A stretch of DNA of 64,000 nucleotides, from assembly GCA_032718475.1 (NCBI GenBank), contig JAUCBJ010003385.1:43825-107824 (forward strand). Reading direction: 5' to 3'. A model generated the notes under the pieces. That model was not told the DNA's origin and did not search any database. It worked only from the letters and a program-made list of their open reading frames with translations. This document shows, in pieces, positions 1 to 64,000 of the stretch. The translations under genes were made by a program, and so were the position numbers. Origin of the DNA: Nemertoderma westbladi. Its lineage: Eukaryota; Animalia; Xenacoelomorpha. Numbering within the stretch: the stretch's first letter is position 1; each line of letters opens with the position of its first letter.

Positions 1-3000
1 AGAACAACTAACCTTCATGGCAACTGTAATTAGGTACCAACGTTCAAGAACAACTAACCTTCATGGCAACTGTAATTAGGTACCAACGTTCTAGAACAAC
101 TAACCTTCATGGCAACTGTAATTAGGTACCAACGTTCTAGAACAACTAACCTTCATGGCAACTGTAATTAGGTACCAACGTTGTAGAACAACTAACCTTC
201 ATGGCAACTGTAATTAGGTACCAACGTTCTAGAACAACTAACCTTCATGTCAAATGTAATTAGGTACCAACGTTCTATAACAACTAACCTTCATGGCAAC
301 TGTAATTAGGTACCAACGTTCAAGAACAACTAACCTTCATGGCAACTGTAATTAGGTACCAACGTTCTAGAACAACTAACCTTCATGTCAAATGTAATTA
401 GGTACCAACGTTCAAGAACAACTAACCTTCATGGCAACTGTAATTAGGTACCAACGTTCTAGAACAACTAACCTTCATGGCAACTGTAATTAGGTACCAA
501 CGTTGTAGAACAACTAACCTTCATGTCAAATGTAATTAGGTACCAACGTTCAAGAACAACTAACCTTCATGGCAACTGTAATTAGGTACCAACGTTCTAG
601 AACAACTAACCTTCATGTCAACTGTAATTAGGTACCAACGTTCTAGAACAACTAACCTTCATGGCAACTGTAATTAGGTACCAACGTTCTAGAACAACTA
701 ACCTTCATGTCAACTGTAATTAGGTACCAACGTTCTAGAACAACTAACCTTCATGGCAACTGTAATTAGGTACCAACGTTCTAGAACAACTAACCTTCAT
801 GGCAACTGTAATTAGGTGCCAACGTTCTAGAACTACTAGCCTTCATGGCAACTGTAATTAGGTACCAACGTTCTAGAACAACTAACCTTCATGGCAACTG
901 TAATTAGGTACCAACGTTCTAGAACAACTAACCTTCATGTCAAATGTAATTAGGTACCAACGTTCAAGAACAACTAACCTTCATGGCAACTGTAATTAGG
1001 TACCAACGTTCTAGAACAACTAACCTTCATGGCAACTGTAATTAGGTACCAACGTTCTAGAACAACTAACCTTCATGGCAACTGTAATTAGGTACCAACG
1101 TTCTAGAACAACTAACCTTCATGGCAACTGTAATTAGGTACCAACGTTCTAGAACAACTAACCTTCATGGCAACTGTAATTAGGTACCAACGTTCTAGAA
1201 CAACTAACCTTCATGGCAACTGTAATTAGGTACCAACGTTCTAGAACAACTAACCTTCATGGCAACTGTAATTAGGTACCAACGTTCTAGAACAACTAAC
1301 CTTCATGGCAACTGTAATTAGGTACCAACGTTCTAGAACAACTAACCTTCATGGCAACTGTAATTAGGTACCAACGTTCTAGAACAACTAACCTTCATGG
1401 CAACTGTAATTAGGTACCAACGTTCTAGAACAACTAACCTTCATGGCAACTGTAATTAGGTACCAACGTTCTAGAACAACTAACCTTCATGGCAACTGTA
1501 ATTAGGTACCAACGTTGTAGAACAACTAACCTTCATGGCAACTGTAATTAGGTACCAACGTTCTAGAACAACTAACCTTCATGTCAAATGTAATTAGGTA
1601 CCAACGTTCTAGAACAACTAACCTTCATGTCAAATGTAATTAGGTACCAACGTTCTATAACAACTAACCTTCATGGCAACTGTAATTAGGTACCAACGTT
1701 CTAGAACAACTAACCTTCATGTCAAATGTAATTAGGTACCAACGTTCTAGAACAACTAACCTTCATGTCAAATGTAATTAGGTACCAACGTTCTACAACA
1801 ACTAACCTTCATGGCAACTGTAATTAGGTACCAACGTTCTATAACAACTAACCTTCATGGCAACTGTAATTAGGTACCAACGTTCTAGAACAACTAACCT
1901 TCATGGCAACTGTAATTAGGTACCAACGTTCTAGAACAACTAACCTTCATGGCAACTGTAATTAGGTACCAACGTTGTAGAACAACTAACCTTCATGGCA
2001 ACTGTAATTAGGTACCAACGTACTAGAACAACTAACCTTCATGGCAACTGTAATTAGGTACCAACGTTGTAGAACAACTAACCTTCATGGCAACTGTAAT
2101 TAGGTACCAACGTTGTAGAACAACTAACCTTCATGGCAACTGTAATTAGGTACCAACGTTCTAGAACAACTAACCTTCATGGCAACTGTAATTAGGTACC
2201 AACGTTCAAGAACAACTAACCTTCATGGCAACTGTAATTAGGTACCAACGTTCTAGAACAACTAACCTTCATGGCAACTGTAATTAGGTACCAACGTTCT
2301 AGAACAACTAACCTTCATGGCAACTGTAATTAGGTACCAACGTTGTAGAACAACTAACCTTCATGGCAACTGTAATTAGGTACCAACGTTCTAGAACAAC
2401 TAACCTTCATGTCAAATGTAATTAGGTACCAACGTTCTATAACAACTAACCTTCATGGCAACTGTAATTAGGTACCAACGTTCAAGAACAACTAACCTTC
2501 ATGGCAACTGTAATTAGGTACCAACGTTCTAGAACAACTAACCTTCATGTCAAATGTAATTAGGTACCAACGTTCAAGAACAACTAACCTTCATGGCAAC
2601 TGTAATTAGGTACCAACGTTCTAGAACAACTAACCTTCATGGCAACTGTAATTAGGTACCAACGTTGTAGAACAACTAACCTTCATGTCAAATGTAATTA
2701 GGTACCAACGTTCAAGAACAACTAACCTTCATGGCAACTGTAATTAGGTACCAACGTTCTAGAACAACTAACCTTCATGGCAACTGTAATTAGGTACCAA
2801 CGTTCTAGAACAACTAACCTTCATGTCAAATGTAATTAGGTACCAACGTTCTAGAACAACTAACCTTCATGGCAACTGTAATTAGGTACCAACGTTCTAG
2901 AACAACTAACCTTCATGGCAACTGTAATTAGGTACCAACGTTCTAGAACAACTAACCTTCATGGCAACTGTAATTAGGTACCAACGTTCTAGAACAACTA

Positions 3001-35432: not shown

Positions 35433-36085
35433 TACAAAATTAAGGCAGCATTATTAAAACGAGTTTTAGGCGTCCACAAGAGCTCGAAAAATCGGTTGGT
35501 CTTCGCTCTGTGCCAGGAAACCCACTTGGCCAAAGAACTACAATCGAATAGCAATTTTCCTGCGACCGATGAATTCAAAAAATACATCGGCACAATCGAA
35601 GAAAAACACAGAGAGATCAACTGGGACTTCTAGACCGCCCCTGGATTTATAAAGAGGAACTGGACCGAGCCAAGATCTCAATCCAGACACGTAATCGCAC
35701 GCTTCTCGATTCACGGCTTTCACCATCTGGTCTGCCAATCTAATGTTTTCCACGATATTTCCCCAGATTGCCGTTGCAAGTTGTGCGGTGGAGCCGCTCC
35801 TCTTCTACACTTGCTGGATTGTCCAGGAAATTCGCGCAGCCTTACTGAGTTAGCAACCAAGATCAATCCTCAGTTGTAACGTAACCAAGGAATTCTAAAT
35901 TTTCGTGCTTTTTAATACTTTTTACATAACTATTTATTTGTCTATATTTTAACCTTTTACTGCCCAGTTGTTGATTAAGTGCCGCTTCCCTGGCTTGTTA
36001 ATTAAAATATATATGCATTTATATTCTTTGTATTTAGCCTTGTTATCTTAATTAACAATTTAAGAATTGTTAAATTAATTAAGTC
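35433..36085 (+). mobile_element. 5'-truncated, degenerate LINE 3' end, related to the adjacent element
   Basis: Translates KIKAALLKRVLGVHKSSKNRLVFALC...WDF*...RHVIARFSIHGFHHLVC...CKLCGGAAPLLHLLDCP, matching KIQAAFLKRVLSVHKSSRNRLVDALC...RFALHGFHFRIC...CSLCGRPADTYHLLSCP at 38530-38930. AT-rich tail follows. Confidence 0.85.
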
Positions 36086-36089
36086 GCCC

Positions 36090-39000: not shown

Positions 39001-39125
39001 ATATTTTATTATTTATGTATAGTATATTTGGATTTTACTGCTTGCTTGCTTAATGCTTATATAGTTTTACAATCGTACCATTATTTTGGTCTAATAAATA
39101 ACAATAGGCACAAATTAATTAAGTA
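36090..39125 (+). mobile_element. Non-LTR retrotransposon (APE endonuclease + reverse transcriptase + C-terminal CCHC knuckle), inactivated
   Basis: APE motifs FWNIEG, FVET, GRGRPVGG, GDFNAR, SVID. RT motifs NYRGISLL, QYGF, DFRKAFDSV, QGDSLSP, LFADD, YKYLG. C-terminal CSLC-x7-H-x3-C. Ends approximate. Confidence 0.92.
36190..39053 (+). pseudogene. Disrupted LINE ORF2 (APE-RT)
   Basis: Frameshifts near 36380 and 36610 in the endonuclease. An in-frame TAA at 38265-38267 separates ORFs 36609-38267 and 38289-39053, which are in the same frame. Confidence 0.88.
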
Positions 39126-39205
39126 CGCCCATAACTTACTTATATAAATATAGCTCATGTTATTAATATAAGAATAATATTCACGCTCAGAATTAAATAA
39201 AAAAT

Positions 39206-42200
39206 CTATAGAAACTAACCCGCAACCTATAGAAACTCACCCGCCACCTATAGAAACTCACCATCAACCTATAGAAACTCACCCGCAACCTATAGAAACT
39301 CACCATCAACCTATAGAAACTCACCCGCAACCTATAGAAACTCACCCGCAACCTATAGAAACTCACCCGCAACCTATAGAAACTCACCGCAACCTATAGA
39401 AACTCACCCGCAACCTATAGAAACTCACCCGCAACCTATAGAAACTCACCCGCAACCTATAGAAACTCACCCGCAACCTATAGAAACTCACCCGCAACCT
39501 ATAGAAACTCACCCGCAACCTATAGAAACTCACCCGCAACCTATAGAAACTCACCCGCAACCTATAGAAACTCACCGCAACCTATAGAAACTCACCCACA
39601 ACCTATAGAAACTCACCCGCCACCTATAGAAACTCACCATCAACCTATAGAAACTCACCCGCAACCTATAGAAACTCACCATCAACCTATAGACACTCAC
39701 CCGCAACCTATAGAAACTCATCCGCAACCTATAGAAACTCACCGCAACCTATAGAAACTCACCCGCAACCTATAGAAACTCACCCGCAACCTATAGAAAC
39801 TCACCCGCAACCTATAGAAACTCACCCGCAACCTATAGAAACTCACCCGCAACCTATAGAAACTCACCCGCAACCTATAGAAACTCACCCGCAACCTATA
39901 GAAACTCACCCGCAACCTATAGAAACTCACCGCAACCTATAGAAACTCACCGCAACCTATAGAAACTCACCCGCAACCTATAGAAACTCACCCGCAACCT
40001 ATAGAAACTCACCGCAACCTATAGAAACTCACCCGCAACCTATAGAAACTCACCGCAACCTATAGAAACTCACCCACAACCTATAGAAACTCACCCGCAA
40101 CCTATAGAAACTCACCGCAACCTATAGAAACTCACCGCAACCTATAGAAACTCACCCACAACCTATAGAAACTCACCATCAACGTATAGAAACTCACCCG
40201 CAACCTATAGAAACTCACCCGCAACCTATAGAAACTCACCCGCAACCTATAGAAACTCACCCGCAACCTATAGAAACTCACCGCAACCTATAGAAACTCA
40301 CCCACAACCTATAGAAACTCACCCGCAACCTATAGAAACTCACCCGCAACCTATAGAAACTCACCCGCAACCTATAGAAACTCACCGCAACCTATAGAAA
40401 CTCACCCGCAACCTATAGAAACTCACCCGCAACCTATAGACACTCACCCGCAACCTATAGAAACTCACCCGCAACCTATAGAAACTCACCCGCAACCTAT
40501 AGAAACTCACCCGCAACCTATAGAAACTCACCCGCAACCTATAGACACTCACCCGCAACCTATAGAAACTCACCCGCAACCTATAGAAACTCACCCGCAC
40601 GTATAGAAACTCACCCGCAACATATAGAAACTCACCCGCAACCTATAGAAACTCACCCACAACCTATAGAAACTCACCCGCAACCTATAGAAACTCACCC
40701 GCAACCTATAGAAACTCACCCGCAACCTATAGAAGCTCACCCGCAACCTATAGAAGCTCACCCGCAACCTATAGACACTCACCCGCAACCTATAGAAACT
40801 CATCCGCAACCTATAGAAACTCACCCGCAACCTATAGAAACTCACCCGCACGTATAGAAACTCACCCGCAACCTATAGAAACTCACCCGCAACCTATAGA
40901 CACTCACCCGCAACCTATAGATACTCACCCGCAACCTATAGAAACTCACCCGCAACCTATAGAAACTCACCCGCACGTATAGAAACTCACCCGCAACATA
41001 TAGAAACTCACCCGCAACCTATAGACACTCACCCGCAACCTATAGAAACTCATCCGCAACCTATAGAAACTCAACCGCAACCTATAGAAACTCACCCGCA
41101 ACCTATAGAAACTCACACGCAACCTATAGAAACTAACCCGCAACCTATAGAAACTAACCCGCAACCTATAGAAACTCACCGCAACCTATAGAAACTCACC
41201 ATCAACCTATAGAAACTCACCCGCAACCTATAGAAACTCACCCGCAACCTATAGAAACTCACCCGCAACCTATAGACACTCACCCGCAACCTATAGAAAC
41301 TCACCCGCAACCTATAGAAACTCACCCGCAACCTATAGAAACTCACCCGCAACCTATAGAAACTCACCCGCAACCTATAGAAACTCACCGCAACCTATAG
41401 AAACTCACCCGCAACCTATAGAAACTCATCCGCAACCTATAGAAACTCACCCGCAACCTATAGAAACTCACCGCAACCTATAGAAACTCACCATCAACCT
41501 ATAGAAACTCACCCGCAACCTATAGAAACTCACCCGCAACCTATAGAAACTCACCCGCAACCTATAGACACTCACCCGCAACCTATAGAAACTCATCCGC
41601 AACCTATAGAAACTCAACCGCAACCTATAGAAACTCACCCGCAACCTATAGAAACTCACCATCAACCTATAGAAACTCACCCGCAACCTATAGAAACTCA
41701 CCCGCAACCTATAGAAACTCACCCGCAACCTATAGACACTCACCCGCAACCTATAGAAACTCATCCGCAACCTATAGAAACTCAACCGCAACCTATAGAA
41801 ACTCACCCGCAACCTATAGAAACTCACACGCAACCTATAGAAACTAACCCGCAACCTATAGAAACTAACCCGCAACCTATAGAAACTCACCGCAACCTAT
41901 AGAAACTCACCCGCAACCTATAGAAACTCACCCGCAACCTATAGACACTCACCCGCAACCTATAGAAACTCATCCGCAACCTATAGAAACTCAACCGCAA
42001 CCTATAGAAACTCACACGCAACCTATAGAAACTCACCCGCAACCTATAGAAACTCACCCGCAACCTATAGACACTCACCCGCAACCTATAGAAACTCATC
42101 CGCAACCTATAGAAACTCACCCGCAACCTATAGAAACTCACCCGCAACCTATAGACACTCACCCGCAACCTATAGAAACTCATCCGCAACCTATAGAAAC

Positions 42201-45200
42201 TCAACCGCAACCTATAGAAACTCACCCGCAACCTATAGAAACTCACACGCAACCTATAGAAACTCACCCACAACCTATAGAAACTAACCCGCAACCTATA
42301 GAAACTAACCCGCAACCTATAGAAACTCACCCGCAACCTATAGAAACTAACCCGCAACCTATAGAAACTCACCCACAACCTATAGAAACTCACCCGCAAC
42401 CTATAGAAACTCACACGCAACCTATAGAAACTCACCCACAACCTATAGAAACTAACCCGCAACCTATAGAAACTAACCCGCAACCTATAGAAACTCACCG
42501 CAACCTATAGAAACTCACCATCAACCTATAGAAACTCACCCGCAACCTATAGAAACTCACCCGCAACCTATAGACACTCACCCGCAACCTATAGAAACTC
42601 ATCCGCAACCTATAGAAACTCAACCGCAACCTATAGAAACTCACCCGCAACCTATAGAAACTCACACGCAACCTATAGAAACTCACCCACAACCTATAGA
42701 AACTAACCCGCAACCTATAGAAACTAACCCGCAACCTATAGAAACTCACCCGCAACCTATAGAAACTCACCCGCAACCTATAGAAACTAACCCGCAACCT
42801 ATAGAAACTCACCCGCAACCTATAGACACTCACCCGCAACCTATAGAAACTCACCCGCAACCTATAGAAACTCACCCGCAACCTATAGAAACTCACCCGC
42901 AACCTATAGAAACTCATCCGCAACCTATAGAAACTCAACCGCAACCTATAGAAACTCACCCGCAACCTATAGAAACTCACACGCAACCTATAGAAACTCA
43001 CCCACAACCTATAGAAACTAACCCGCAACCTATAGAAACTAACCCGCAACCTATAGAAACTCACCCGCAACCTATAGAAACTCACCCGCAACCTATAGAA
43101 ACTAACCCGCAACCTATAGAAACTCACCCGCAACCTATAGACACTCACCCGCAACCTATAGAAACTCACCCGCAACCTATAGAAACTAACCCGCAACCTA
43201 TAGAAACTAACCCGCAACCTATAGAAACTAACCCGCAACCTATAGAAACTAACCGCAACCTATAGACACTCACCCGCAACCTATAGAAACTCACCCGCAA
43301 CCTATAGAAACTCACCCGCAACCTATAGACACTCACCCGCAACCTATAGAAACTCACCCGCAACCTATAGAAACTAACCCGCAACCTATAGAAACTAACC
43401 CGCAACCTATAGAAACTAACCCGCAACCTATAGAAACTCACCCGCAACCTATAGAAACTCACCATCAACCTATAGAAACTCACCCGCAACCTATAGAAAC
43501 TCACCCGCAACCTATAGAAACTCACCCGCAACCTATAGACACTCACCCGCAACCTATAGAAACTCACCCGCAACCTATAGAAACTCACCCGCAACCTATA
43601 GAAACTAACCCGCAACCTATAGAAACTAACCCGCAACCTATAGAAACTCAACCGCAACCTATAGAAACTCACCCGCAACCTATAGAAACTCACACGCAAC
43701 CTATAGAAACTCACCCACAACCTATAGAAACTAACCCGCAACCTATAGAAACTAACCCGCAACCTATAGAAACTAACCCGCAACCTATAGACACTCACCC
43801 GCAACCTATAGAAACTCATCCGCAACCTATAGAAACTCAACCGCAACCTATAGAAACTCACCCGCAACCTATAGAAACTCACACGCAACCTATAGAAACT
43901 CACCCACAACCTATAGAAACTAACCCGCAACCTATAGAAACTAACCCACAACCTATAGAAACTCACCCACAACCTATAGAAACTAACCCGCAACCTATAG
44001 AAACTAACCCGCAACCTATAGAAACTCACCCGCAACCTATAGAAACTCACCCGCAACCTATAGAAACTCACACGCAACCTATAGAAACTCACCGCAACCT
44101 ATAGAAACTCACCCGCAACCTATAGAAACTCACCCGCAACCTATAGAAACTAACCGCAACCTATAGAAACTCACCGCAACCTATAGAAACTCACCATCAA
44201 CCTATAGAAACTCACCGCAACCTATAGAAACTCACCATCAACCTATAGAAACTCACCCGCAACCTATAGAAACTCACCCGCAACCTATAGAAACTCACCC
44301 GCAACCTATAGAAACTCACCGCAACCTATAGAAACTCACCCACAACCTATAGAAACTCAACCGCAACCTATAGAAACTCACCATCAACCTATAGAAACTC
44401 ACCGCAACCTATAGAAACTCACCCACAACCTATAGAAACTCATCCGCAACCTATAGAAACTAACCCGCAACCTATAGAAACTAACCCGCAACCTATAGAA
44501 ACTCAACCGCAACCTATAGAAACTCACCCGCAACCTATAGAAACTCACACGCAACCTATAGAAACTCACCCACAACCTATAGAAACTAACCCGCAACCTA
44601 TAGAAACTAACCCGCAACCTATAGAAACTCACCCGCAACCTATAGACACTCACCCGCAACCTATAGAAACTCATCCGCAACCTATAGAAACTCAACCGCA
44701 ACCTATAGAAACTCACCCGCAACCTATAGAAACTCACACGCAACCTATAGAAACTCACCCACAACCTATAGAAACTAACCCGCAACCTATAGAAACTAAC
44801 CCACAACCTATAGAAACTCACCCACAACCTATAGAAACTAACCCGCAACCTATAGAAACTAACCCGCAACCTATAGAAACTCACCGCAACCTATAGAAAC
44901 TCACCATCAACCTATAGAAACTCACCGCAACCTATAGAAACTCACCATCAACCTATAGAAACTCACCCGCAACCTATAGAAACTCACCCGCAACCTATAG
45001 AAACTCACCCGCAACCTATAGACACTCACCCGCAACCTATAGAAACTCATCCGCAACCTATAGAAACTAACCCGCAACCTATAGAAACTAACCCGCAACC
45101 TATAGAAACTCAACCGCAACCTATAGAAACTCACCCGCAACCTATAGAAACTCACACGCAACCTATAGAAACTCACCCACAACCTATAGAAACTAACCCG

Positions 45201-48200
45201 CAACCTATAGAAACTAACCCGCAACCTATAGAAACTCACCCGCAACCTATAGACACTCACCCGCAACCTATAGAAACTCATCCGCAACCTATAGAAACTC
45301 AACCGCAACCTATAGAAACTCACCCGCAACCTATAGAAACTCACACGCAACCTATAGAAACTCACCCACAACCTATAGAAACTAACCCGCAACCTATAGA
45401 AACTAACCCACAACCTATAGAAACTCATCCGCAACCTATAGAAACTAACCCGCAACCTATAGAAACTAACCCGCAACCTATAGAAACTCAACCGCAACCT
45501 ATAGAAACTCACCCGCAACCTATAGAAACTCACACGCAACCTATAGAAACTCACCCACAACCTATAGAAACTAACCCGCAACCTATAGAAACTAACCCGC
45601 AACCTATAGAAACTCACCCGCAACCTATAGACACTCACCCGCAACCTATAGAAACTCATCCGCAACCTATAGAAACTCAACCGCAACCTATAGAAACTCA
45701 CCCGCAACCTATAGAAACTCACACGCAACCTATAGAAACTCACCCACAACCTATAGAAACTAACCCGCAACCTATAGAAACTAACCCACAACCTATAGAA
45801 ACTCACCCACAACCTATAGAAACTAACCCGCAACCTATAGAAACTAACCCGCAACCTATAGAAACTCACCGCAACCTATAGAAACTCACCATCAACCTAT
45901 AGAAACTCACCGCAACCTATAGAAACTCACCATCAACCTATAGAAACTCACCCGCAACCTATAGAAACTCACCCGCAACCTATAGAAACTCACCCGCAAC
46001 CTATAGACACTCACCCGCAACCTATAGAAACTCATCCGCAACCTATAGAAACTAACCCGCAACCTATAGAAACTCACCCGCAACCTATAGAAACTCACCA
46101 TCAACCTATAGAAACTCACCCGCAACCTATAGAAACTCACCCACAACCTATAGAAACTCACCCGCAACCTATAGACACTCACCCGCAACCTATAGAAACT
46201 CACCCGCAACCTATAGAAACTCACCCGCAACCTATAGAAACTAACCCGCAACCTATAGAAACTAACCCGCAACCTATAGAAACTCAACCGCAACCTATAG
46301 AAACTCACCCGCAACCTATAGAAACTCACACGCAACCTATAGAAACTCACCCACAACCTATAGAAACTAACCCGCAACCTATAGAAACTAACCCGCAACC
46401 TATAGAAACTAACCCGCAACCTATAGACACTCACCCGCAACCTATAGAAACTCATCCGCAACCTATAGAAACTCAACCGCAACCTATAGAAACTCACCCG
46501 CAACCTATAGAAACTCACACGCAACCTATAGAAACTCACCCACAACCTATAGAAACTAACCCGCAACCTATAGAAACTAACCCACAACCTATAGAAACTC
46601 ACCCACAACCTATAGAAACTAACCCGCAACCTATAGAAACTAACCCGCAACCTATAGAAACTCACCCGCAACCTATAGAAACTCACCCGCAACCTATAGA
46701 AACTCACACGCAACCTATAGAAACTCACCGCAACCTATAGAAACTCACCCGCAACCTATAGAAACTCACCCGCAACCTATAGAAACTAACCGCAACCTAT
46801 AGAAACTCACCGCAACCTATAGAAACTCACCATCAACCTATAGAAACTCACCGCAACCTATAGAAACTCACCATCAACCTATAGAAACTCACCCGCAACC
46901 TATAGAAACTCACCCGCAACCTATAGAAACTCACCCGCAACCTATAGAAACTCACCGCAACCTATAGAAACTCACCCACAACCTATAGAAACTCAACCGC
47001 AACCTATAGAAACTCACCATCAACCTATAGAAACTCACCGCAACCTATAGAAACTCACCCACAACCTATAGAAACTCATCCGCAACCTATAGAAACTAAC
47101 CCGCAACCTATAGAAACTAACCCGCAACCTATAGAAACTCAACCGCAACCTATAGAAACTCACCCGCAACCTATAGAAACTCACACGCAACCTATAGAAA
47201 CTCACCCACAACCTATAGAAACTAACCCGCAACCTATAGAAACTAACCCGCAACCTATAGAAACTCACCCGCAACCTATAGACACTCACCCGCAACCTAT
47301 AGAAACTCATCCGCAACCTATAGAAACTCAACCGCAACCTATAGAAACTCACCCGCAACCTATAGAAACTCACACGCAACCTATAGAAACTCACCCACAA
47401 CCTATAGAAACTAACCCGCAACCTATAGAAACTAACCCACAACCTATAGAAACTCACCCACAACCTATAGAAACTAACCCGCAACCTATAGAAACTAACC
47501 CGCAACCTATAGAAACTCACCGCAACCTATAGAAACTCACCATCAACCTATAGAAACTCACCGCAACCTATAGAAACTCACCATCAACCTATAGAAACTC
47601 ACCCGCAACCTATAGAAACTCACCCGCAACCTATAGAAACTCACCCGCAACCTATAGACACTCACCCGCAACCTATAGAAACTCATCCGCAACCTATAGA
47701 AACTAACCCGCAACCTATAGAAACTAACCCGCAACCTATAGAAACTCAACCGCAACCTATAGAAACTCACCCGCAACCTATAGAAACTCACACGCAACCT
47801 ATAGAAACTCACCCACAACCTATAGAAACTAACCCGCAACCTATAGAAACTAACCCGCAACCTATAGAAACTCACCCGCAACCTATAGACACTCACCCGC
47901 AACCTATAGAAACTCATCCGCAACCTATAGAAACTCAACCGCAACCTATAGAAACTCACCCGCAACCTATAGAAACTCACACGCAACCTATAGAAACTCA
48001 CCCACAACCTATAGAAACTAACCCGCAACCTATAGAAACTAACCCACAACCTATAGAAACTCATCCGCAACCTATAGAAACTAACCCGCAACCTATAGAA
48101 ACTAACCCGCAACCTATAGAAACTCAACCGCAACCTATAGAAACTCACCCGCAACCTATAGAAACTCACACGCAACCTATAGAAACTCACCCACAACCTA

Positions 48201-49150
48201 TAGAAACTAACCCGCAACCTATAGAAACTAACCCGCAACCTATAGAAACTCACCCGCAACCTATAGACACTCACCCGCAACCTATAGAAACTCATCCGCA
48301 ACCTATAGAAACTCAACCGCAACCTATAGAAACTCACCCGCAACCTATAGAAACTCACACGCAACCTATAGAAACTCACCCACAACCTATAGAAACTAAC
48401 CCGCAACCTATAGAAACTAACCCACAACCTATAGAAACTCACCCACAACCTATAGAAACTAACCCGCAACCTATAGAAACTAACCCGCAACCTATAGAAA
48501 CTCACCGCAACCTATAGAAACTCACCATCAACCTATAGAAACTCACCGCAACCTATAGAAACTCACCATCAACCTATAGAAACTCACCCGCAACCTATAG
48601 AAACTCACCCGCAACCTATAGAAACTCACCCGCAACCTATAGACACTCACCCGCAACCTATAGAAACTCATCCGCAACCTATAGAAACTCAACCGCAACC
48701 TATAGAAACTCACCCGCAATCTATAGAAACTCACACGCAACCTATAGAAACTAACCCGCAACCTATAGAAACTAACCCGCAACCTATAGAAACTCACCGC
48801 AACCTATAGAAACTCACCATCAACCTATAGAAACTCACCCGCAACCTATAGAAACTCACCCGCAACCTATAGAAACTCACCCGCAACCTATAGACACTCA
48901 CCCGCAACCTATAGAAACTCACCCGCAACCTATAGAAACTCACCCGCAACCTATAGAAACTCACCCGCAACCTATAGAAACTCACCCGCAACCTATAGAA
49001 ACTCACCGCAACCTATAGAAACTCACCCGCAACCTATAGAAACTCACCCGCAACCTATAGAAACTCACCCGCAACCTATAGAAACTCACCCGCAACCTAT
49101 AGAAACTCACCCGCCACCTATAGACACTCACCCGCAACCTATAGAAACTC
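39206..49150. repeat. 21-bp tandem array (~475 copies) derived from the 3' end and donor site of SH3YL1 exon 49318-49132
   Basis: Unit ctatagaaactcacccgcaac, minus strand GAGTTTCTATAGGTTGCGG|GT. It continues directly from exon codons GGG AGT TTC TAT AGG. Occasional 20-bp units. Confidence 0.99.
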
Positions 49151-49318
49151 CCGTTTCTCTCCCTGTTGATGGCGGCGGCCTTCAACGACCGTCGTATTTT
49201 GCTATTCTGGGCGTTGCATATAAGATCGGAGAGAAGTCCGCACAGTTCGTTACACTCCACTGGCCGAGCTACTTCCCCAGAAAGTAACTGTTTGGCTCGA
49301 ACAGCCGTAGAATAAAAC
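49132..49318 (-). CDS. SH3YL1: SH3YL1-like exon (end of SYLF domain, start of linker)
   Basis: Acceptor gttcgcggtag| in phase 2 gives (R)FYSTAVRAKQLLSGEVARPVECNELCGLL, matching the family pattern KFY...RA.DIL.G...RP.....LY..L. The donor is most likely CGG|GTGAGT after 49132; alternative AG|GTTGCG after 49139. Confidence 0.8.
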
Positions 49319-50285: not shown

Positions 50286-51788
50286 ATGTACGTTGCTAAA
50301 CACCGACTACGGTGTAGTAACTGGGGATATCAGAGATACTGTACGTCCACGTCGAATGGTATCAATGGAAACACGAACTCAGCAAAACCGATGGCGAAAT
50401 TAAAACAACTGAAATCGCGCCCACCGCCCCCTCCAAGAACAGACGAGACACCTCTAGCGGGGGGAAGGGAACTCAACCCACGGGCGAGGGAACGCGCGGT
50501 CCCGGCCTCCCAACTGTCGCGACTCAGCCACTTCGCGTCGTTAGGGGGCGGCCTCGCGTGGGGGTCGCTAAGCAACGCGGCGAGTCGAGTGTTGGCGGGG
50601 CAACGACTGGACACAACGCTAGTGCTGAACGAGGCCAACGTTCGTCGGATAGTCGATACTCTGTGCGCCGTTAGAGGCGCGGCGCTCAAGATGGGACAGA
50701 TGCTGAGCATCCAGGACAACACGCTAGTGAGTGCGGAGCTGAGAGCGGCGTTCGAACGAGTGCGACAAAACGCAGATTACATGCCGCTACGACAACTAGA
50801 GGGCGTGATGCGCGGGGAGTTAGGGGAGAGTTGGAGGGAGAGATTCGGAAGGTTTGAGAACGTTCCGTTCGCGGCCGCGTCCATCGGGCAGGTTCACCGG
50901 GCGACCTCGACCGCAGGGGAACCCCTCGCGGTGAAGGTTCAGTACCCGGGGGTGGCTCGCAGTATCGACAGCGATCTGTGGAACCTGGGGAACCTGGTGG
51001 CGCCGTTCCTGCCCCGGGGATTGTACGTGGATCGGGTGATGGAAGTGGCGCGCGCCGAGTTGGTCTGGGAGACCGACTACCTGCGGGAGGCGGCGATGCA
51101 ACGCCGGATGGGCGAACTCCTCCGCGACGATCCCTTCCTCGCGGTGCCGCGGGTTCGGGACGAACTCTCCACGCGACTCCTCCTCACCTCGGAGCTCGCC
51201 GTCGGCGTCCCTTTGGACGCGACCACGGGACTCGATCAACCCACGCGCGATTGGCTCGCGGAGACCGTCTTACGTCTGTGTCTCCGGGAGCTGTTTGAGT
51301 TTCGAGTGATGCAGACCGATCCGAACTGGTCCAACTTCCTCTTCGACTCGGAGGCTCATCGGATCGTCCTCCTGGACTTCGGAGCGACTCGGGAGTTCGA
51401 GGAATCGTTCGTCGCCGACTACTTCCGGCTAATAAACGCCGCAGTTCATAGAGATTCCGATAAAGTGGTGGAGTATTCTAGAACTCTGGGTTTCCTAACG
51501 GGCTACGAGTCGTCAACTATGACAGAGACTCACGTCCAGGCTATAATGATACTGGGAGAGGCCTTCTCTCTGGAAGACCGCTTTGATTTCGGAGCGCAGT
51601 CCACAAGTAAACGAATTCTCTCTCTGGTACCCCGCATGGTAGAAGGCAGACTAACCCCGCCACCCAGGGAAACCTACTCTCTGCACAGGAAGATGAGTGG
51701 TGCCTTTATGCTTTGTACGCAAGTGAGAGCCAATATAAACTGCTCCACTATGTGGAAAGAATTAACAGCTAATTACAATGAAACGTAG
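50286..51788 (+). CDS. COQ8: Atypical kinase COQ8/ADCK3-4 (UbiB/ABC1 family), 500 aa, intronless, nested antisense in an SH3YL1 intron
   Basis: ARERAVP, VRGAALKMGQ (KxGQ), A-rich loop PFAAASIGQVH, AVKVQYPGV, MQTDPNWSNF, LLDFGA, PPPRETYSLHRKMSG. Basic N-terminus compatible with a mitochondrial presequence. Confidence 0.96.
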   Translation: MYVAKHRLRCSNWGYQRYCTSTSNGINGNTNSAKPMAKLKQLKSRPPPPPRTDETPLAGGRELNPRARERAVPASQLSRLSHFASLGGGLAWGSLSNAASRVLAGQRLDTTLVLNEANVRRIVDTLCAVRGAALKMGQMLSIQDNTLVSAELRAAFERVRQNADYMPLRQLEGVMRGELGESWRERFGRFENVPFAAASIGQVHRATSTAGEPLAVKVQYPGVARSIDSDLWNLGNLVAPFLPRGLYVDRVMEVARAELVWETDYLREAAMQRRMGELLRDDPFLAVPRVRDELSTRLLLTSELAVGVPLDATTGLDQPTRDWLAETVLRLCLRELFEFRVMQTDPNWSNFLFDSEAHRIVLLDFGATREFEESFVADYFRLINAAVHRDSDKVVEYSRTLGFLTGYESSTMTETHVQAIMILGEAFSLEDRFDFGAQSTSKRILSLVPRMVEGRLTPPPRETYSLHRKMSGAFMLCTQVRANINCSTMWKELTANYNET

Positions 51789-51914
51789 CCCTCCATCATA
51801 TCTGTTTCAATTAAGTGCTAAACCACGATAACAGTGAACTTTTAGGTAATTAAAAGTTAATTAACTACCGGTAATCCCGTTAATTATGTGGCTAAATTAT
51901 TATACCCATCCATG

Positions 51915-51959
51915 ACTTCTAGAACATAGTATTTATTATAAATACTATGTTCTAGAAGT
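51915..51959. repeat. Perfect inverted repeat, 21-bp arms with a 3-nt loop
   Basis: acttctagaacatagtattta-tta-taaatactatgttctagaagt. Confidence 0.9.
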
Positions 51960-52336
51960 AATTGATGATACTGATAGCATTCGCAAAACCAAACCGAACC
52001 ATCACATTCCTTCCAATCTTTTCGCATCCATTTTGGCTAATATTAATTTATTATTCCTGTACAATACTTAACGATTATTCAATTATTGATTTCTATGTCC
52101 GAAAATATATTCTACAGTAAATACGAAATTCTACTAAATTAGCGGTTTTTCCCAACCGAATGGAATGAGGGCCGCCGGATTCCAATAAATGTGATACTAG
52201 CAGTTAAGAAAGTTTCCGACAATTTTATAAATTAATGGTTTGTGGATGCGGTTACACGGACTTACATTAATAGTTTTGGGTTTTTTTTTATTATAAAAAT
52301 TAGGTGATTCCTAAATTTGTTGTACTCTACCCGGTT

Positions 52337-53844: not shown

Positions 53845-54841
53845 ATGTTTCTTTTGAAAAATGCAACTGAGATTCTGGAGATTCTGTCCCAATATTTTCA
53901 CTTGTCAGTGGAATTTGTAATTGCCTTAATATTAGTCTACGTGGTAGGAACGTGGCTGAGAATAAACTGTAAGGAACGCATTGGAGGAACGCAGGAACAG
54001 GCAACTCAAACTCCATTCGAATCGACGAGATTGCATTGCGAATACAAAACAAATAGTGTCAACGGGGACACAGAGAGACAAAGAATATGCAATAATTGTG
54101 ACAATGGGGACACAGAAAGACAAAGAATATCCAATAATGGTGACACAGACAGTGATGAATGGGACGCTGAGACTGTACCAGCAATGGGTGATGACACCCA
54201 AAAGGAGACGATCAATAGGTACTACTGTGTTTTGGGCACACCCCTACCTACACCCCCCAGAAGTTTGTTTTTAAATAGCTAGTTTTAGTTACTTTTTTTT
54301 ATGTTCTACAACATATTGACTACTCATTTTTTTTATTAATTTTGTTCTCGAACAAAATTAATTAATTCGGTTTTTTTGTTGTTAGCAAAGCAAAATGTTC
54401 TAGAACATATCATCTATTCATTTTTGTAAAAAGTAATGTTCTAGAACAAATAGTGTTGTTCTAGAACATTTTAAAAAACTTGTTTTTTGTGACGTGTTTT
54501 TCCGGCTAGTGTTAAAAACAATTACTAACAACTAACTGTACAAATTTTCATTGTAGCTAGTGATTTTTATTAAATATGTGATACAAAGATAACATTTCAA
54601 AATAACAATTTCAAGATAACATCAAAATTTTTATATTAAATGAATAGATAATATGCTCTAGAAGAACTTTGTTTTTAAAAAGTAACAAAAACTAGCTAGT
54701 ATAAAAAATTTGAGGGGGGGGGGGGGGGGGGTGGGGTGGGGGGGTGTGCCCAAAACACAGTAGTACCGGTACCCGATCAATTTAAGGGCGAGGGGTAAGG
54801 TACCAATTGGGGAGGATCAGGTTACTGCCACATTAGTATGA
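53845..54841 (+). pseudogene. Possible small single-TM orphan ORF interrupted by a MITE
   Basis: ATG at 53845, hydrophobic FVIALILVYVVGTWL, QATQT, NGDTERQRI repeats. The frame resumes after the insertion (INLRARGKVPIGEDQVTATLV*, TGA 54839-54841). No homology recognised. Confidence 0.35.
54218..54767. mobile_element. MITE-like element with ~80-100 bp terminal inverted repeats
   Basis: ggtactactgtgttttgggcacacccc... mirrors ...ggggtgtgcccaaaacacagtagtacc, and the symmetry continues through tagctagtttt/aaaactagcta. cgatcaat lies on both flanks. Confidence 0.8.
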
Positions 54842-55124: not shown

Positions 55125-55994
55125 CACCATGACCCGTAGTGTCATTTTCTGATGACACGGACTCCCCCCCCCCCCCCCCCCAGATTTTTCTACAAATCTT
55201 TATCCTATTGCTTGAAATTTGAAACACAACTAGTTCAACTCACCGTGGTTGTTACCATGAAGCCGGAATTTTCGATTTTGCCTTTAAATCTTTTTAATAA
55301 GCGTTTTAAAAAAAGTGTGTTTTGCGAAATCGCACCCTCCGTATCGTGGCCATTATTCACATTAGTCGTTGCCTTGCGTTGAAAGGATTCAAAATATGTA
55401 ACAATATCTTAATTTCGTTGAGAAACAGCTGAGATATAGGCGTTCAAAGATTGCAAGAATTATTGTTCGCTGCAGGCCATTTATTCAATTTAATAAATAC
55501 ACAAAATTCTAGAACGTGTTATTTATTTTATGAGTTGGTTGGCAATTGCGGTATGCCTATCCAATATCTATATTGCATAGCTAATCATACATAAGCAAAG
55601 TTCCAGAACATCGTGTATTTATTAAATAGAATAAATTGCCTAACAGCGAAGAATAATTCTTGCAATCTTTGAACGCCTGTATCTCAGCTGTTTCTCAACG
55701 AAATTCAGATATTGTTACATATTTTGAATCCTTGCAACGCAAGGCAACGACTAATGTGAATAATGGCCACGATACGGAGGGTGCGATTTCGCAAAACACA
55801 CTTTTTTTAAAACGCTTATAAAAAATTTTTTAAGGCGAAATCGAAAATTCCGGCTAGATGGGGCCAACCACGTTGAGTTGAACTAGTTGTGTTTCAAATT
55901 TCAAGCAATATGATAAGGATTTGTAGAAAAATTTGGGGGGGGGGGGGGGGGGTCCGTGTCATCAGAAAATGACACTATATTACGGGTCATGGTG
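55125..55994. mobile_element. Foldback/MITE element with ~390-bp inverted arms and TA flanks
   Basis: TA-caccatgacccgta...tacgggtcatggtg-TA. Arms ~55125-55515 and ~55600-55994 are near reverse complements (e.g. gtatcgtggccattattcacattagtcgttgccttgcgttg). TA target is typical of Tc1/mariner-type elements. Confidence 0.9.
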
Positions 55995-56445: not shown

Positions 56446-56766
56446 GAGAGTATAGTTCTGGGGGGCACTTAAATAAGTCGTCAGACTTTGCGCGTAATCC
56501 CTGGCCTAACGACCAAATTTTAAACTTCATTTTTAAAAAATGTATCTCGTTTTAGTCGTTTCTGCGAGCGATAATTTTTTAAACTTGATTTGTGCCCAAA
56601 ATTCAAAAGTCAAAACCACACATTAAGCCTACGCCAACCGATATCCGTACAGACATGTCTCCTAAATTTTTCCTGAGTAAAAGTACATCTACTCCTCTGG
56701 TACTAAAAATACCATGGGGTGTACGAGGATCATACTAATGCCTTTATTGCTATGAGAGAGCTTCGG

Positions 56767-57150
56767 GAACCAATCAGAGACGATCACCTTATGGGAGATT
56801 GGTAGGGAATCAATCGCAGATTATCAACTTATGGGAGATGGGTAAGGAACAAATCAGTGACGATCAACTTATGGGAGATGGGTAAGGAACCAATCAGAGC
56901 CGATTAACTTATGGGAGATGGGTAAGGAACCAATCAGAGCCGATTAACTTATGGGAGATGGGTAAGGAACCTATCAGAGCCGATTAACTTATGGGAGATG
57001 GGTAAGGAACCTATCAGAGCCGATTAACTTATGGGAGATGGGTAAGGAACCAATCAGAGCCGATTAACTTATGGGAGATGGGTAAGGAACTATCAGAGAC
57101 GACCAACATATTGTACATAGTAGGGAACCAATCAGTGACGATCAACTTAT
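56767..57150. repeat. 40-bp minisatellite, ~9 copies, degenerate at both ends
   Basis: Unit atgggagatgggtaaggaaccaatcagagccgattaactt. Confidence 0.93.
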
Positions 57151-57989: not shown

Positions 57990-59148
57990 TTTGCTGACTT
58001 CTTCAAGACCTTTGATTCAGTCTCTCGCTCACGTATGTTCAGCATACTTTCATTATGGGATTCCTGATGAAATTATTGCAGCAATAAGATCAGTATACGA
58101 TGGTTCGACAACATTTGTGTCTACTGTTGACGGTGACACATAACCATTTGAAGTGTTATGGGGCATCCTCCAGGGAGACACACTTGCACCATTCTTGTTC
58201 ATAATTGTGGTTGACTATGTTCTACGCATGTCCTTAGATCATCATAATGATGATGGGGTGATGATAACTCCACCTACTGGCTCCAGAAGTCGAGGAAATC
58301 CTGCCAAGTACCTAACTGATCTAGACTTGGCTGATGACTTAGGAGTACTCTCAGAATCATTAGAGGGAGCCCAACGGCTCCTCAGCTCATTAGAACATGC
58401 TGCTTATAGTGTTGGTCTTTTTATTAACTCCAGAAAGACCAAAATTTTGACAGTTAACTTTGAAAGTTCTCAGCAAGTCTCTGATCGGATGAGCATAAGC
58501 TCAAAGGATGGTATGCTTGAGCATGTGGACGACTTCTGTTACCTGGGATCATGGATCCGGAAGTCAGGTGAGGACCTTCGAATACGTAAGGGAAAGGCAT
58601 GGGCAGCCTTGAATAGGCTTTCCAGGATTTGGAAGTCACCGAGAATTAATCGGAAACTTAAGGTCCGATTATTTAGAGCAGCAGTAGTTCCAGTACTCCT
58701 CTATGGGAGTACATGCTGGGCTCTAACTGCTGAGGACACCAAATCTCTGGATGGCACATTCACAAGAATGCTACGCCGGGTTCATTGTGTCAAGTACAAT
58801 GCACACATCTCCAACCAGACACTATATAACATTGGAGGTGTCTCATTGGTTCCCCCAAGCTTGACACTAGAACAAAATCGCCTCCGCTTTGCAGGACATT
58901 GCTTTCGCCATGAGGACCAGCCAGTGCATAATCTTGTACTTTGGCAGCCTCATGGAGTGAATAAGCATGGTGGACAGCCCATGACTTTCTTGAGACGCAT
59001 CTTAAAGGACACTGGCCTTGAAGATGCGGATGATCTAGCAAATGTCATGGCTGATAGGGAGTTGTGGCTGCGCAATCGACAAGCCGGTACAACATTCTTA
59101 AAAATGCAGCTGCAATGCAGCATACCGATCCTAGTAGTAGTAGTAGTA
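57990..59148 (+). mobile_element. 5'-truncated RTE-like non-LTR retrotransposon (RT remnant)
   Basis: DFFKTFDSV, GILQGDTLAPFLF, DLADDL, DFCYLGS, VLLYGSTCW, RLRFAGHCFR. Disrupted upstream of 58153; ends in a (TAG)n tail at 59132-59148. Confidence 0.9.
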
Positions 59149-59378
59149 CATTATTTATGTAAACTTATACAAAATTATGTCTACTTTCTTTTATTTGTAT
59201 TTACTTTAATTACGCCAACTTTAATTATGTTTACTTTATTAGAATGTACTTTATTTACGTCTACTTTATGCGATGTAATTATTTCAGCAGTGCATTCCAT
59301 TATCCACTCTATTTAATGTTACACATAATTCGTTAACATATGAATACTGAGGGATTGGATAATGGATGTAAGACTAAC

Positions 59379-59543
59379 CTGCAGCTATTGTTAGGTTCCC
59401 ACCAACAGTAAAGTTACCCCCCATAGAGAAAGCGTCAACAGCTGCCTGATTGTTGAGAATGATGACGAACTGAGTGAGTTCCAGTCCGACTTCCAATCCA
59501 CCACCGACACCAAATATACCAACAGCCGACGGTGCAGACCATT
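59379..59543 (-). CDS. SH3YL1: SH3YL1-like exon (SYLF domain)
   Basis: ttttgccttttag|AA TGG TCT... encodes WSAPSAVGIFGVGGGLEVGLELTQFVIILNNQAAVDAFSMGGNFTVGGNLTIAAG and ends GCAG|gttagt. 165 nt, phase 1-1. Confidence 0.93.
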
Positions 59544-62500
59544 CTAAAAGGCAAAAATATACCAACAGCTGACGGTGCAGACCATTCTATAAGGTAAAAA
59601 TATACCAACAGCCGACGGTGCAGACCATTCTATAAGGCAAAAATATACCAACAGCCGACGGTGCAGACCATTCTATAAGGTAAAAATATACCAACAGCCG
59701 ACGGTGTAGACCATTCTATAAGGCAAAAATATACCAACAGCCGACGGTGCAGACCATTCTATAAGGCAAAAATATACCAACAGCCGACGGTGCAGACCAT
59801 TCTATAAGGCAAAAATATACCAACAGCCGACGGTGCAGACCATTCTATAAGGTAAAAATGTACCAACAGCTGACGGTGGAGACCATTCTATAAGGTAAAA
59901 ATATACCAACGGGCCGACGGTGCAGACCATTCTATAAGGTAAAAATATACCAACAGCCGACGGTGGAGACCATTCTATAAGGTAAAAATATACCAACGGG
60001 CCGACGGTACAGACCATTCTATAAGGTAAAAATATACCAACAGCCGACGGTGCAGACCATTCTATAAGGTAAAAATATACCAACAGCCGACGGTGGAGAC
60101 CATTCTATAAGGTAAAAATATACCAACAGCCGACGGTGCAGACCATTCTATAAGGTAAAAATATACCAACAGCCGACGGTGGAGACCATTCTATAAGGTA
60201 AAAATATACCAACGGGCCGACGGTGCAGACCATTCTATAAGGTAAAAATATACCAACAGCCGACGGTGCAGACCATTCTATAAGGTAAAAATATACCAAC
60301 GGGCCGACGGTGCAGACCATTCTATAAGGTAAAAATATACCAACAGCCGACGGTGCAGACCATTCTATAAGGTAAAAATATACCAACAGCCGACGGTGGA
60401 GACCATTCTATAAGGTAAAAATATACCAACAGCCGACGGTGCAGACCATTCTATAAGGTAAAAATATACCAACAGCCGACGGTGGAGACCATTCTATAAG
60501 GTAAAAATATACCAACGGGCCGACGGTGCAGACCATTCTATAAGGTAAAAATATACCAACAGCCGACGGTGCAGACCATTCTATAAGGTAAAAATATACC
60601 AACGGGCCGACGGTGCAGACCATTCTATAAGGTAAAAATATACCAACAGCCGACGGTGGAGACCATTCTATAAGGTAAAAATATACCAACAGCCGACGGT
60701 GCAGACCATTCTAAAAGGCAAAAATATACCAACAGCTGACGGTGCAGACCATTCTATAAGGTAAAAATATACCAACAGCCGACGGTGCAGACCATTCTAT
60801 AAGGTAAAAATATACCAACAGCCGACGGTGCAGACCATTCTATAAGGTAAAAATATACCAACAGCCGACGGTGGAGACCATTCTATAAGGTAAAAATATA
60901 CCAACGGGCCGACGGTGCAGACCATTCTATAAGGTAAAAATATACCAACAGCCGACGGTGCAGACCATTCTATAAGGTAAAAATATACCAACAGCCGACG
61001 GTGCAGACCATTCTATAAGGTAAAAATATACCAACAGCCGACGGTGCAGACCATTCTATAAGGTAAAAATATACCAACAGCCGACGGTGCAGTGGTGCAG
61101 ACCATTCTATAAGGTAAAAATATACCAACAGCCGACGGTGCAGACCATTCTATAAGGCAAAAATATACCAACAGCCGACGGTGCAGACCATTCTATAAGG
61201 CAAAAATATACCAACAGCCGACGGTGCAGACCATTCTATAAGGTAAAAATATACCAACAGCCGACGGTGCAGACCATTCTATAAGGTAAAAATATACCAA
61301 CGGCCGACGGTGCAGACCATTCTATAAGGTAAAAATATACCAACAGCCGACGGTGGAGACCATTCTATAAGGTAAAAATATACCAACGGGCCGACGGTGC
61401 AGACCATTCTATAAGGTAAAAATATACCAACAGCCGACGGTGCAGACCATTCTATAAGGTAAAAATATACCAACAGCCGACGGTGCAGACCATTCTATAA
61501 GGTAAAAATATACCAACAGCCGACGGTGCAGACCATTCTATAAGGTAAAAATATACCAACAGCCGACGGTGGAGACCATTCTATAAGGTAAAAATATACC
61601 AACAGGCCGACGGTGCAGACCATTCTATAAGGTAAAAATATACCAACAGCCGACGGTGCAGACCATTCTATAAGGTAAAAATATACCAACAGCCGACGGT
61701 GCAGACCATTCTATAAGGTAAAAATATACCAACAGCCGACGGTGCAGACCATTCTATAAGGTAAAAATATACCAACAGCCGACGGTGCAGACCATTCTAT
61801 AAGGTAAAAATATACCAACAGCCGACGGTGCAGACCATTCTATAAGGTAAAAATATACCAACAGCCGACGGTGCAGACCATTCTATAAGGTAAAAATATA
61901 CCAACGCCGACGGTGCAGACCATTCTATAAGGTAAAAATATACCAACAGCCGACGGTGCAGACCATTCTATAAGGCAAAAATATACCAACAGCCGACGGT
62001 GCAGACCATTCTATAAGGTAAAAATATACCAACAGCCGACGGTGCAGACCATTCTATAAGGTAAAAATATACCAACAGCCGACGGTGCAGACCATTCTAT
62101 AAGGCAAAAATATACCAACAGCCGACGGTGCAGACCATTCTATAAGGTAAAAATATACCAACAGCCGACGGTGCAGACCATTCTATAAGGTAAAAATATA
62201 CCAACAGCCGACGGTGCAGACCATTCTATAAGGTAAAAATATACCAACAGCCGACGGTGCAGACCATTCTATAAGGTAAAAATATACCAACAGCCGACGG
62301 TGCAGACCATTCTATAAGGTAAAAATATACCAACAGCCGACGGTGCAGACCATTCTATAAGGTAAAAATATACCAACAGCCGACGGTGCAGACCATTCTA
62401 TAAGGTAAAAATATACCAACAGCCGACGGTGCAGACCATTCTATAAGGTAAAAATATACCAACAGCCGACGGTGCGTGTGCAGACCATTCTATAAGGTAA

Positions 62501-64000
62501 AAATATACCAACAGCCGACGGTGCAGACCATTCTATAAGGTAAAAATATACCAACGGCCGACGGTGCAGACCATTCTATAAGGTAAAAATATACCAACAG
62601 CCGACGGTGCAGACCATTCTATAAGGTAAAAATATACCAACAGCCGACGGTGCAGACCATTCTATAAGGTAAAAATATACCAACAGCCGACGGTGCAGAC
62701 CATTCTATAAGGTAAAAATATACCAACAGCCGACGGTGCAGACCATTCTATAAGGTAAAAATATACCAACAGCCGACGGTGCAGACCATTCTATAAGGTA
62801 AAAATATACCAACAGCCGACGGTGCAGACCATTCTATAAGGTAAAAATATACCAACAGCCGACGGTGCAGACCATTCTATAAGGTAAAAATATACCAACA
62901 GCCGACGGTGCAGACCATTCTATAAGGTAAAAATATACCAACAGCCGACGGTGCAGACCATTCTATAAGGCAAAAATATACCAACAGCCGACGGTGCAGA
63001 CCATTCTATAAGGTAAAAATATACCAACAGCCGACGGTGCAGACCATTCTATAAGGTAAAAATATACCAACAGCCGACGGTGCAGACCATTCTATAAGGT
63101 AAAAATATACCAACAGCCGACGGTGCAGACCATTCTATAAGGCAAAAATATACCAACAGCCGACGGTGCAGACCATTCTATAAGGCAAAAATATACCAAC
63201 AGCCGACGGTGCAGACCATTCTATAAGGTAAAAATATACCAACAGCCGACGGTGCAGACCATTCTATAAGGTAAAAATATACCAACAGCCGACGGTGCAG
63301 ACCATTCTATAAGGTAAAAATATACCAACAGCCGACGGTGCAGACCATTCTATAAGGTAAAAATATACCAACAGCCGACGGTGCAGACCATTCTATAAGG
63401 TAAAAATATACCAACAGCCGACGGTGCAGACCATTCTATAAGGTAAAAATATACCAACAGCCGACGGTGCAGACCATTCTATAAGGCAAAAATATACCAA
63501 CAGCCGACGGTGCAGACCATTCTATAAGGCAAAAATATACCAACAGCCGACGGTGCAGACCATTCTATAAGGCAAAAATATACCAACAGCCGACGGTGCA
63601 GACCATTCTATAAGGTAAAAATATACCAACAGCCGACGGTGCAGACCATTCTATAAGGTAAAAATATACCAACAGCCGACGGTGGCAGACCATTCTATAA
63701 GGCAAAAATATACCAACAGCCGACGGTGCAGACCATTCTATAAGGCAAAAATATACCAACAGCCGACGGTGCAGACCATTCTATAAGGTAAAAATATACC
63801 AACAGCCGACGGTGCAGACCATTCTATAAGGTAAAAATATACCAACAGCCGACGGTGCAGACCATTCTATAAGGCAAAAATATACCAACAGCCGACGGTG
63901 CAGACCATTCTATAAGGTAAAAATATACCAACAGCCGACGGTGCGAGACCATTCTATAAGGTAAAAATATACCAACAGCCGACGGTGCAGACCATTCTAT
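59512..64000. repeat. 43-bp tandem array (~104 copies, runs off the right edge) derived from the acceptor and first ~32 nt of exon 59543-59379
   Basis: Unit aatataccaacagccgacggtgcagaccattctataaggtaaa, minus strand TTACCTTATAG|AATGGTCTGCACCGTCGGCTGTTGGTATATTT. The terminal copy is the real exon start. Confidence 0.99.

Follow-up and report, generated by a model that had tools for sequence, protein, structure and literature searches.

Three giant tandem arrays in a 64,000-nt stretch of the Nemertoderma westbladi genome (assembly GCA_032718475.1, contig JAUCBJ010003385.1, positions 43,825 to 107,824 of the forward strand; hereafter the window) each span a splice junction of the same gene, SH3YL1, and a spliced contig from another sample uses the exon-nearest splice site at all three. 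We consider it probable that these are junction-spanning arrays of the "mirage" type described in lancelets, seeded at the DNA level, kept by virtue of an intact exon edge, and grown by unequal exchange. Tandem arrays in the window were called with Tandem Repeats Finder, which returned 11 rows, 3 of them giant. All three giant arrays are read on the minus strand: a 46-bp array at positions 1 to 33918 (737.0 copies, 97% matches), a 21-bp array at 39206 to 49150 (475.6 copies, or 476, over 9.9 kb, 94% matches), and a 43-bp array at 59512 to 64000 (103.8 copies, or 104, 97% matches). Because the 46-bp array runs off the start of the window and the 43-bp array runs off its end, the sizes given for these two are minima, with the 46-bp array being at least 33.9 kb. 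Together, the giant arrays amount to 48,352 bases, or 75.6% of the window. The splice sites that lie inside the 46-bp and 21-bp arrays are donors, and the one inside the 43-bp array is an acceptor.

SH3YL1 is laid out on the minus strand as five exons with AG/GT ends and a single stop-free frame of 224 codons. Exons A (59543-59379, 165 nt) and B (49579-49435, 145 nt) carry the Ysc84 domain (PF04366), with Pfam matches above the cut-off (E 7e-11 and 5e-12, respectively), and exon C (49318-49132, 187 nt) gives a weak match. The best matches of exon A among 331 candidates are named SH3YL1 proteins, at up to 76%, and tblastn puts exons A, B, and C in order. These are followed by exons D (35090-35057, 34 nt) and E (34026-33883, 144 nt). 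The acceptor AG of exon A (59545-59544) belongs to the last copy of the 43-bp array, the donor GT of exon C lies at 49131, and the donor GT of exon E (33882) counts as the first copy of the 46-bp array. Between exons B and C lies a 116-bp intron, the one short intron without an array.

Four sequencing runs were compared: X1, possibly from the source sample; X2 and X3, both from one other sample; and X4, from a third sample (S3). In X4, an unbroken contig of 1,603 nt (depth, 105.5) omits positions 34027 to 35056 exactly (1030 nt), joining 34026 to 35057 with 34 letters on its shorter flank; record positions 894 to 1040 cover exon E. An X4 record of equal length and depth covers exon A at positions 361 to 529, and its loose end is the start of exon B. 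The record positions agree to the base with the predicted lengths of exons A to E. The reading frame was insufficient to establish exon D, since it stays open when this exon is skipped; the spliced contig settles the matter. Exon C is supported by frame and tblastn; its donor was located by arithmetic on the transcript record rather than by direct alignment, and this arithmetic puts it at 49131, provided that the sequence has been read correctly for the exon B donor and exon C acceptor. Run X4 is labeled "DNA?" and was taken as RNA from its joints; a processed DNA copy would record the used splice sites too. Exons A and E are identical between samples and exon D has one difference, while the intron DNA has many.

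The repeat units consist of contiguous genomic junction DNA. The 43-bp unit is made up of the last 11 nt of the intron and the first 32 nt of exon A, and the acceptor AG ends 103 of 103 units; 9 of the 15 unit types in this array are singletons, several of them with small insertions. The 46-bp unit joins the first 14 intron nucleotides after exon E to 32 exon-like nucleotides derived from exon E, with 729 of 735 units retaining the donor GT. Seven of the 735 have a 48-nt form that is identical to exon E and is likely the ancestral unit; apart from these, the array has no length variants. Among the arrays, variant units are arranged in an orderly series of nested blocks, and stretches of 54 units (offset, 53) and of 120 units (offset, 126) recur exactly. 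The 21-bp array starts inside the end of exon C, and its unit sequence, with GT read as GG, accounts for the whole of the last 21 nt of that exon (49132-49152, minus strand). These seven terminal codons may be an exonized copy left after the donor shifted, or they may be the microhomology from which the array was seeded. The donor GT is kept in 421 of 474 units of this array, and 42 of the 474 are 20 nt long. Both a GT and a later AG are found within the unit in 468 of 474 cases in the 21-bp array and in 590 of 735 in the 46-bp array.

No motif common to the three units beyond the splice consensus emerged when they were compared with shuffled sequences: the pairwise best 14-nt matches (10, 10, and 9) were equaled by 85, 155, and 254 of 300 shuffles. 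On the first of these figures, a candidate 14-nt "mini-intron" shared by the two donor units, which agree at 10 of 14 positions (equaled by 85 of 300 shuffles), was set aside as unproven; its positions 7 to 14 gave a post hoc p of 0.034. In the 64-kb window, 14-mers of the 21-bp and 43-bp arrays occur nowhere else. Those of the 46-mer have 7 matches outside the array, 6 of which are at the palindromic motif of an element resembling a miniature inverted-repeat transposable element (MITE). A sequence-only reading of this DNA had described the 43-bp unit as ~11 intron nucleotides, including the AG, plus ~32 SH3YL1 coding nucleotides, and the 21-bp unit as an exon end plus a donor, and the anatomy of the units bears out both descriptions. 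What it had called a "probable" exon end in the 46-bp unit proves to be real, given the exact skip of 34027 to 35056 and the coverage of exon E in the X4 contig. Its further claims that the units share no sequence, that the arrays fill about 48 kb of the 64 kb, and that three independent junction-spanning expansions took place agree with the shuffles, the base count, and the combination of unit anatomy and spliced contig, respectively.

The palindromic TTCTAGAA core of the 46-mer, which we take to resemble a heat-shock element, recurs in inverted-repeat (MITE-like) elements, and the 15.6 kb of DNA outside the arrays contains 10 copies. It is found at 1 to 33918, 51907 to 51967, 54218 to 54767, and 55137 to 55977. 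A perfect triplet like that of a heat-shock element is present in the 48-nt exon-type units and absent from the common 46-mer.

At all three arrays, the site used in the transcript is the one nearest the exon, whether the first donor past it or the last acceptor ahead of it, with exon edges at 59543, 49132 (by arithmetic), and 33883; this describes the major form, as recorded by one contig of one run from another sample. Downstream of the used donors lie 702 further copies of the used donor 9-mer in the 46-bp array and 204 in the 21-bp array. The 20-nt context of the used donors is repeated identically in 552 and 32 downstream copies, and that of the used acceptor recurs once. With these identical 20-nt contexts downstream, the used donors cannot be singled out by sequence alone. 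Use of a decoy would mostly be destructive: at the 46-mer, a stop comes directly after the second donor, and at the 43-mer, stops come after 1, 2, or 3 upstream acceptors. Beyond exon C, the 21-mer can be read in frame through several units until a stop is reached. Retention of GT and AG across the units of the three arrays gave no sign of decoy erasure. None of the units showed significantly unusual RNA folding (z −1.67, −0.55, and −1.14), and RNA structure as a means of hiding the decoys was rejected. A coding role for the 21-mer array was likewise rejected: open stretches reach 334 codons, but 42 of the 474 units are 20 nt long and the transcript exits at the first donor. The copy that contains the used acceptor (59544-59586, minus strand) is a rare variant, with 1 identical decoy among 102, and a G-to-A difference 27 nt before the exon A junction is found in 3 of 103 units of the 43-bp array. 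The rare-variant copy could reflect a branch point, or it could be an edge unit spared homogenization.

We compared the arrays with published systems using the accessible portions of the papers cited here. In lancelets, mirage minisatellites occur in Adh3, the globins BflGb6 and BflGb9, troponin C, and PGBD5. They are tandem copies of exon-intron boundaries, at both 5' and 3' boundaries, with units of 10 to 160 bp; many copies keep their AG or GT, splicing is reported to be normal, the clusters evolve in concert internally, and the mechanism of origin is called unclear (PMC3087553, PMC3902484). The PGBD5 mirage has 2 to 7 copies, with troponin C treated there also (PMC3902484). The SH3YL1 arrays resemble these in their boundary-spanning tandem units, their retained AG/GT pseudo-sites, and normal splicing in which the edge copy is used. 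They differ in being found in another animal lineage and in their scale, namely 104 to 737 copies and 4.5 to more than 33.9 kb, with three arrays in one gene taking up 76% of the window, compared to the 2 to 7 copies given in the accessible lancelet text.

Human variable-number tandem repeats (VNTRs) that span junctions offer a second comparison. Those listed include F7 intron 7 (37 bp, 5 to 9 copies), CBS intron 13 (15 to 20 copies), and 6-16 (25 pseudo-sites), along with lamin B2 and PDGF, for an overall range of 5 to 25 copies (PMC1557585). In F7, the most upstream of several identical donors is used by oriented scanning, and its loss activates the next copy (PMC1557585). As at SH3YL1, the first unit spans the donor, identical pseudo-sites lie downstream, and the exon-nearest site is used. 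The SH3YL1 arrays, however, have up to ~30 times as many copies as the largest case in the accessible list, and they include an array on the acceptor side and, at exon C, what may be a natural donor shift. Tandem-repeat inflation of introns has also been described in expressed Y-linked genes of Drosophila (PMC6508621, PMC11207136). SH3YL1 is likewise an expressed gene with repeat-inflated introns, but the Drosophila introns are megabase-sized and belong to Y-linked fertility genes. The satellites of those Y introns are simple and not known to be related to exons, whereas the SH3YL1 units are derived from the gene and carry its splice sites.

A further parallel is intron gain through tandem duplication of a proto-splice site (Rogers 1989; Zhuo et al. 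2007, both as cited in the accessible part of PMC3087553). There, too, tandem duplication multiplies splice signals, and the 21-bp and 46-bp units contain a GT and a later AG; the difference is that the 21-bp array is no intron by itself, with ~4.1 kb of other DNA before the next acceptor, and that no new intron or exon is seen. The specific proposal that an intron was born from the 21-bp array was rejected, as both of its splice sites do not lie in the array and the exon D acceptor is 4.1 kb beyond it. The accessible text of PMC10078293 deals with repeat length and splicing rather than with junction-spanning units. Overall, the SH3YL1 arrays share features of the mirage class, in that the unit spans a real boundary, the edge copy is functional, and AG/GT pseudo-sites are kept, and they exceed its reported size of a few to ~25 copies, a range that describes the known cases and does not define the class. 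They are likely members of this known class at satellite scale, larger than reported by one to two orders of magnitude. The literature that we searched, mostly without subscription papers, described neither junction arrays of kilobase scale or genome-wide extent nor a genome-wide test of mirages.

Under the reading that we favor, a short DNA-level duplication of 21 to 48 bp across a splice site, produced by slippage or unequal repair, would have seeded each array. Such a duplication would be nearly neutral, leaving one whole exon edge in place, and the site would be chosen by position, as the first donor after the exon or the last acceptor before it, in the way shown experimentally for human F7. 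Ordinary unequal exchange would then have amplified and homogenized the arrays to 4.5 to 34 kb. The bias toward junctions would be mostly a survivor and small-target effect, with ancestral introns that were short and later inflated by transposons, and the arrays would be tolerated passengers. Amplification by unequal exchange accords with the exact repeats of 54 and 120 units and with the likely ancestral 48-nt units scattered through the 46-bp array. The contiguous exon and intron letters of the units speak for a DNA-level origin. Spliced mRNA was not the template, because the units are contiguous genomic junction DNA and not exon-exon joins: they carry intron letters instead of the neighboring exon, the transcript upstream of exon A differs from the 43-mer beyond the AG, and downstream of exon E it exits the array after 3 nt. 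Among the processes that the sequence-only reading had proposed, RNA templating is thus contradicted in its spliced-mRNA form, while selection that tolerates only expansions leaving one intact exon copy fits the use of exon-nearest sites in the transcript. The lineage-wide process of that reading, coupled to splicing, is no more than a candidate on the strength of this one gene.

Several points weigh against this reading. The ten splice sites of the gene are touched by 3 of 3 giant arrays and by 0 of 8 other Tandem Repeats Finder rows, a joint chance of 1.6e-5 under the 13.5 kb of non-array, noncoding DNA present today, and the probability that at least 3 of 7 arrays with a period of 20 or more fall on junctions is 8.6e-4. 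For a pure survivor effect to explain either value, the introns must have been short at the time of seeding. With ancestral introns of 400, 200, and 100 bp, the joint chance becomes 0.004, 0.025, and 0.13, respectively; on this point the 116-bp intron and the multicopy or transposon-like nature of much of the unique intron DNA speak for the favored reading. Breakpoint microhomology is not readable, as two arrays have their far ends beyond the window and that of the third borders a long interspersed nuclear element (LINE)-like element. The sample that yielded the spliced contig has the 46-mer without a 43-mer contig, and its arrays may be shorter; the run is RNA by interpretation of its joints, and contigs lose rare isoforms. 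The exact long blocks could be assembler errors. Finally, for the growth of these three arrays while the intronic repeats stayed small, a drop in allelic homology at exon edges and transcription-linked breaks are rival accounts.

The same junction bias is what a targeted process would produce, in which breaks or conversion tracts in this lineage end preferentially at exon edges and cause more seeding or amplification there. Proposed causes are polymerase pausing or R-loops at splice sites and a fall in homology between alleles where conserved exon gives way to polymorphic intron. The contrast between giant and small arrays within the gene, with its probability of 1.6e-5 under present introns, and the near identity of exons between samples against the many intron differences speak in its favor. 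We nonetheless think a targeted process unlikely, although its probability is not negligible: the chance expectation climbs to between 0.004 and 0.13 for introns of 400 to 100 bp, 7 of the 10 splice sites are free of arrays, no shared motif unites the units, and unit letters do not fit templating by spliced mRNA. Moreover, this is a single gene in a window chosen because it was striking, and a choice between targeting and survivor bias calls for more than one gene.

Array length bears on another alternative, that these are ordinary mirages of tens of copies, inflated in the assembly or extreme only in the sequenced individual. In all three runs from the first two samples, unique contigs end at the edge of the 46-mer (33873 in X1, 33873 in X2, and 33889 in X3), and the bin that holds this repeat has a depth of 11,091 in X1, 1,169 in X2, and 67,016 in X3, compared to 24 to 43 in adjoining bins. 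Contig depth is no measure of copy number, and between the two runs from one sample this bin differs 57-fold. In X4, which covers 17 of 30 bins and none of the single-copy intron stretches, the 46-mer is present as a 76-nt contig (depth, 9) and no 43-mer contig was found. A one-unit, 73-nt contig of the 43-mer is present in X1, X2, and X3, at 29 (458.6/15.8), 6.3 (293.1/46.6), and 8.2 (250.2/30.4) times the depth of its unique neighbor, where the window leads one to expect at least 69 times; this suggested fewer copies than were assembled. The 21-mer bin is clear in X1 (depth, 1,492) and weak in X2 (80) and X3 (212).

The 46-bp and 43-bp repeats are real outside the assembly, since their presence in a second sample means that the assembler did not invent them. 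The sequence-only reading had named assembly artefacts as something that would undo it; for the existence of these two repeats that concern falls away, while for the lengths of the arrays it persists, with length polymorphism, library bias, and assembly inflation all possible sources of the depth shortfall of the 43-mer. The many singleton unit types of the 43-bp array and the weak 21-mer depth in X2 and X3 would also suit inflated lengths. Against this stand the looseness of contig depth as a measure, the depth of the 46-mer bin in X1 relative to ~40 for unique neighbors, and the makeup of the 46-bp array, which shows ordered variant blocks rather than random errors and in which the seven exon-type units are the sole length variants among 735. 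We regard this alternative, of inflated or individual-specific length, as improbable. Less probable still is that the arrays are kept for a function, be it decoy sites that tune expression, the 7-residue extension of exon C, a transcription delay, or a landing array for heat-shock factor. The open frame of the 21-mer beyond exon C and the 669 GAAnnTTC/TTCnnGAA doublets in the 46-mer array, counted by the heat-shock-element consensus, could be read this way, but no decoy appears in the major transcript, just 7 perfect triplets are left, the third element having been lost from the common 46-mer unit, RNA folding is ordinary, and the units are unrelated. With these alternatives weighed, we retain DNA-level seeding, survival through an intact exon edge, and unequal exchange as the best explanation of the three arrays.

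A broader idea, to which we would give a low probability, is that splice junctions are the main seedbed of satellites throughout this genome. Gene-private units would then grow to tens of kilobases and bring intron gigantism and positional donor choice, and lost edge sites would be rescued by the next copy with lengthening of the exon, an event that the GG for GT at exon C may record. Mirage origin is called unclear in the lancelet literature, and a genome with arrays of satellite size would give power to separate survivor bias from mutational targeting. SH3YL1 also offers an extreme natural case in which to test the choice of splice sites by position, with one exon followed by more than 700 matching donor 9-mers where the human cases have 5 to 25 copies. 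If the arrays prove to have tens of copies, or the pattern is limited to SH3YL1, this is an ordinary mirage locus.

The introns hold several other elements. The LINE-like retroelement lies at 36083 to 39205 on the plus strand, with approximate ends, a reverse transcriptase match (RVT_1, E 2.5e-32), and an endonuclease remnant. Its A-rich 3' end runs directly up to the distal end of the 21-bp array, and most of the element has no coverage in X4; a fragment related to it is found at ~35434 to 36014. A second reverse transcriptase fragment (RVT_1, E 1.2e-7; DUF6451) is at 58144 to 59316 on the plus strand, in the intron between exons A and B. The same intron contains, antisense to SH3YL1 and not part of the arrays, an intact, intronless COQ8/ADCK3 kinase open reading frame of 500 aa (50286-51788, plus strand; ABC1, E 4.5e-62). 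Its best database match among 7,994 candidates scored is 55%, and the animal is therefore divergent from annotated species. No close relative was found among 45 metagenome loci, where best-segment identity ranged from 29 to 63%. At 56766 to 57150, an intronic 40-bp minisatellite of 9.7 copies lies away from any splice site and provides an internal contrast. A very high-copy element resembling a short interspersed nuclear element (SINE) occupies 34904 to 35010, with bin depths of 524,730 to 918,270 compared to ~40 for unique DNA, and a stretch similar to it is found at ~58990 to 59120, beside a LINE fragment near exon A.

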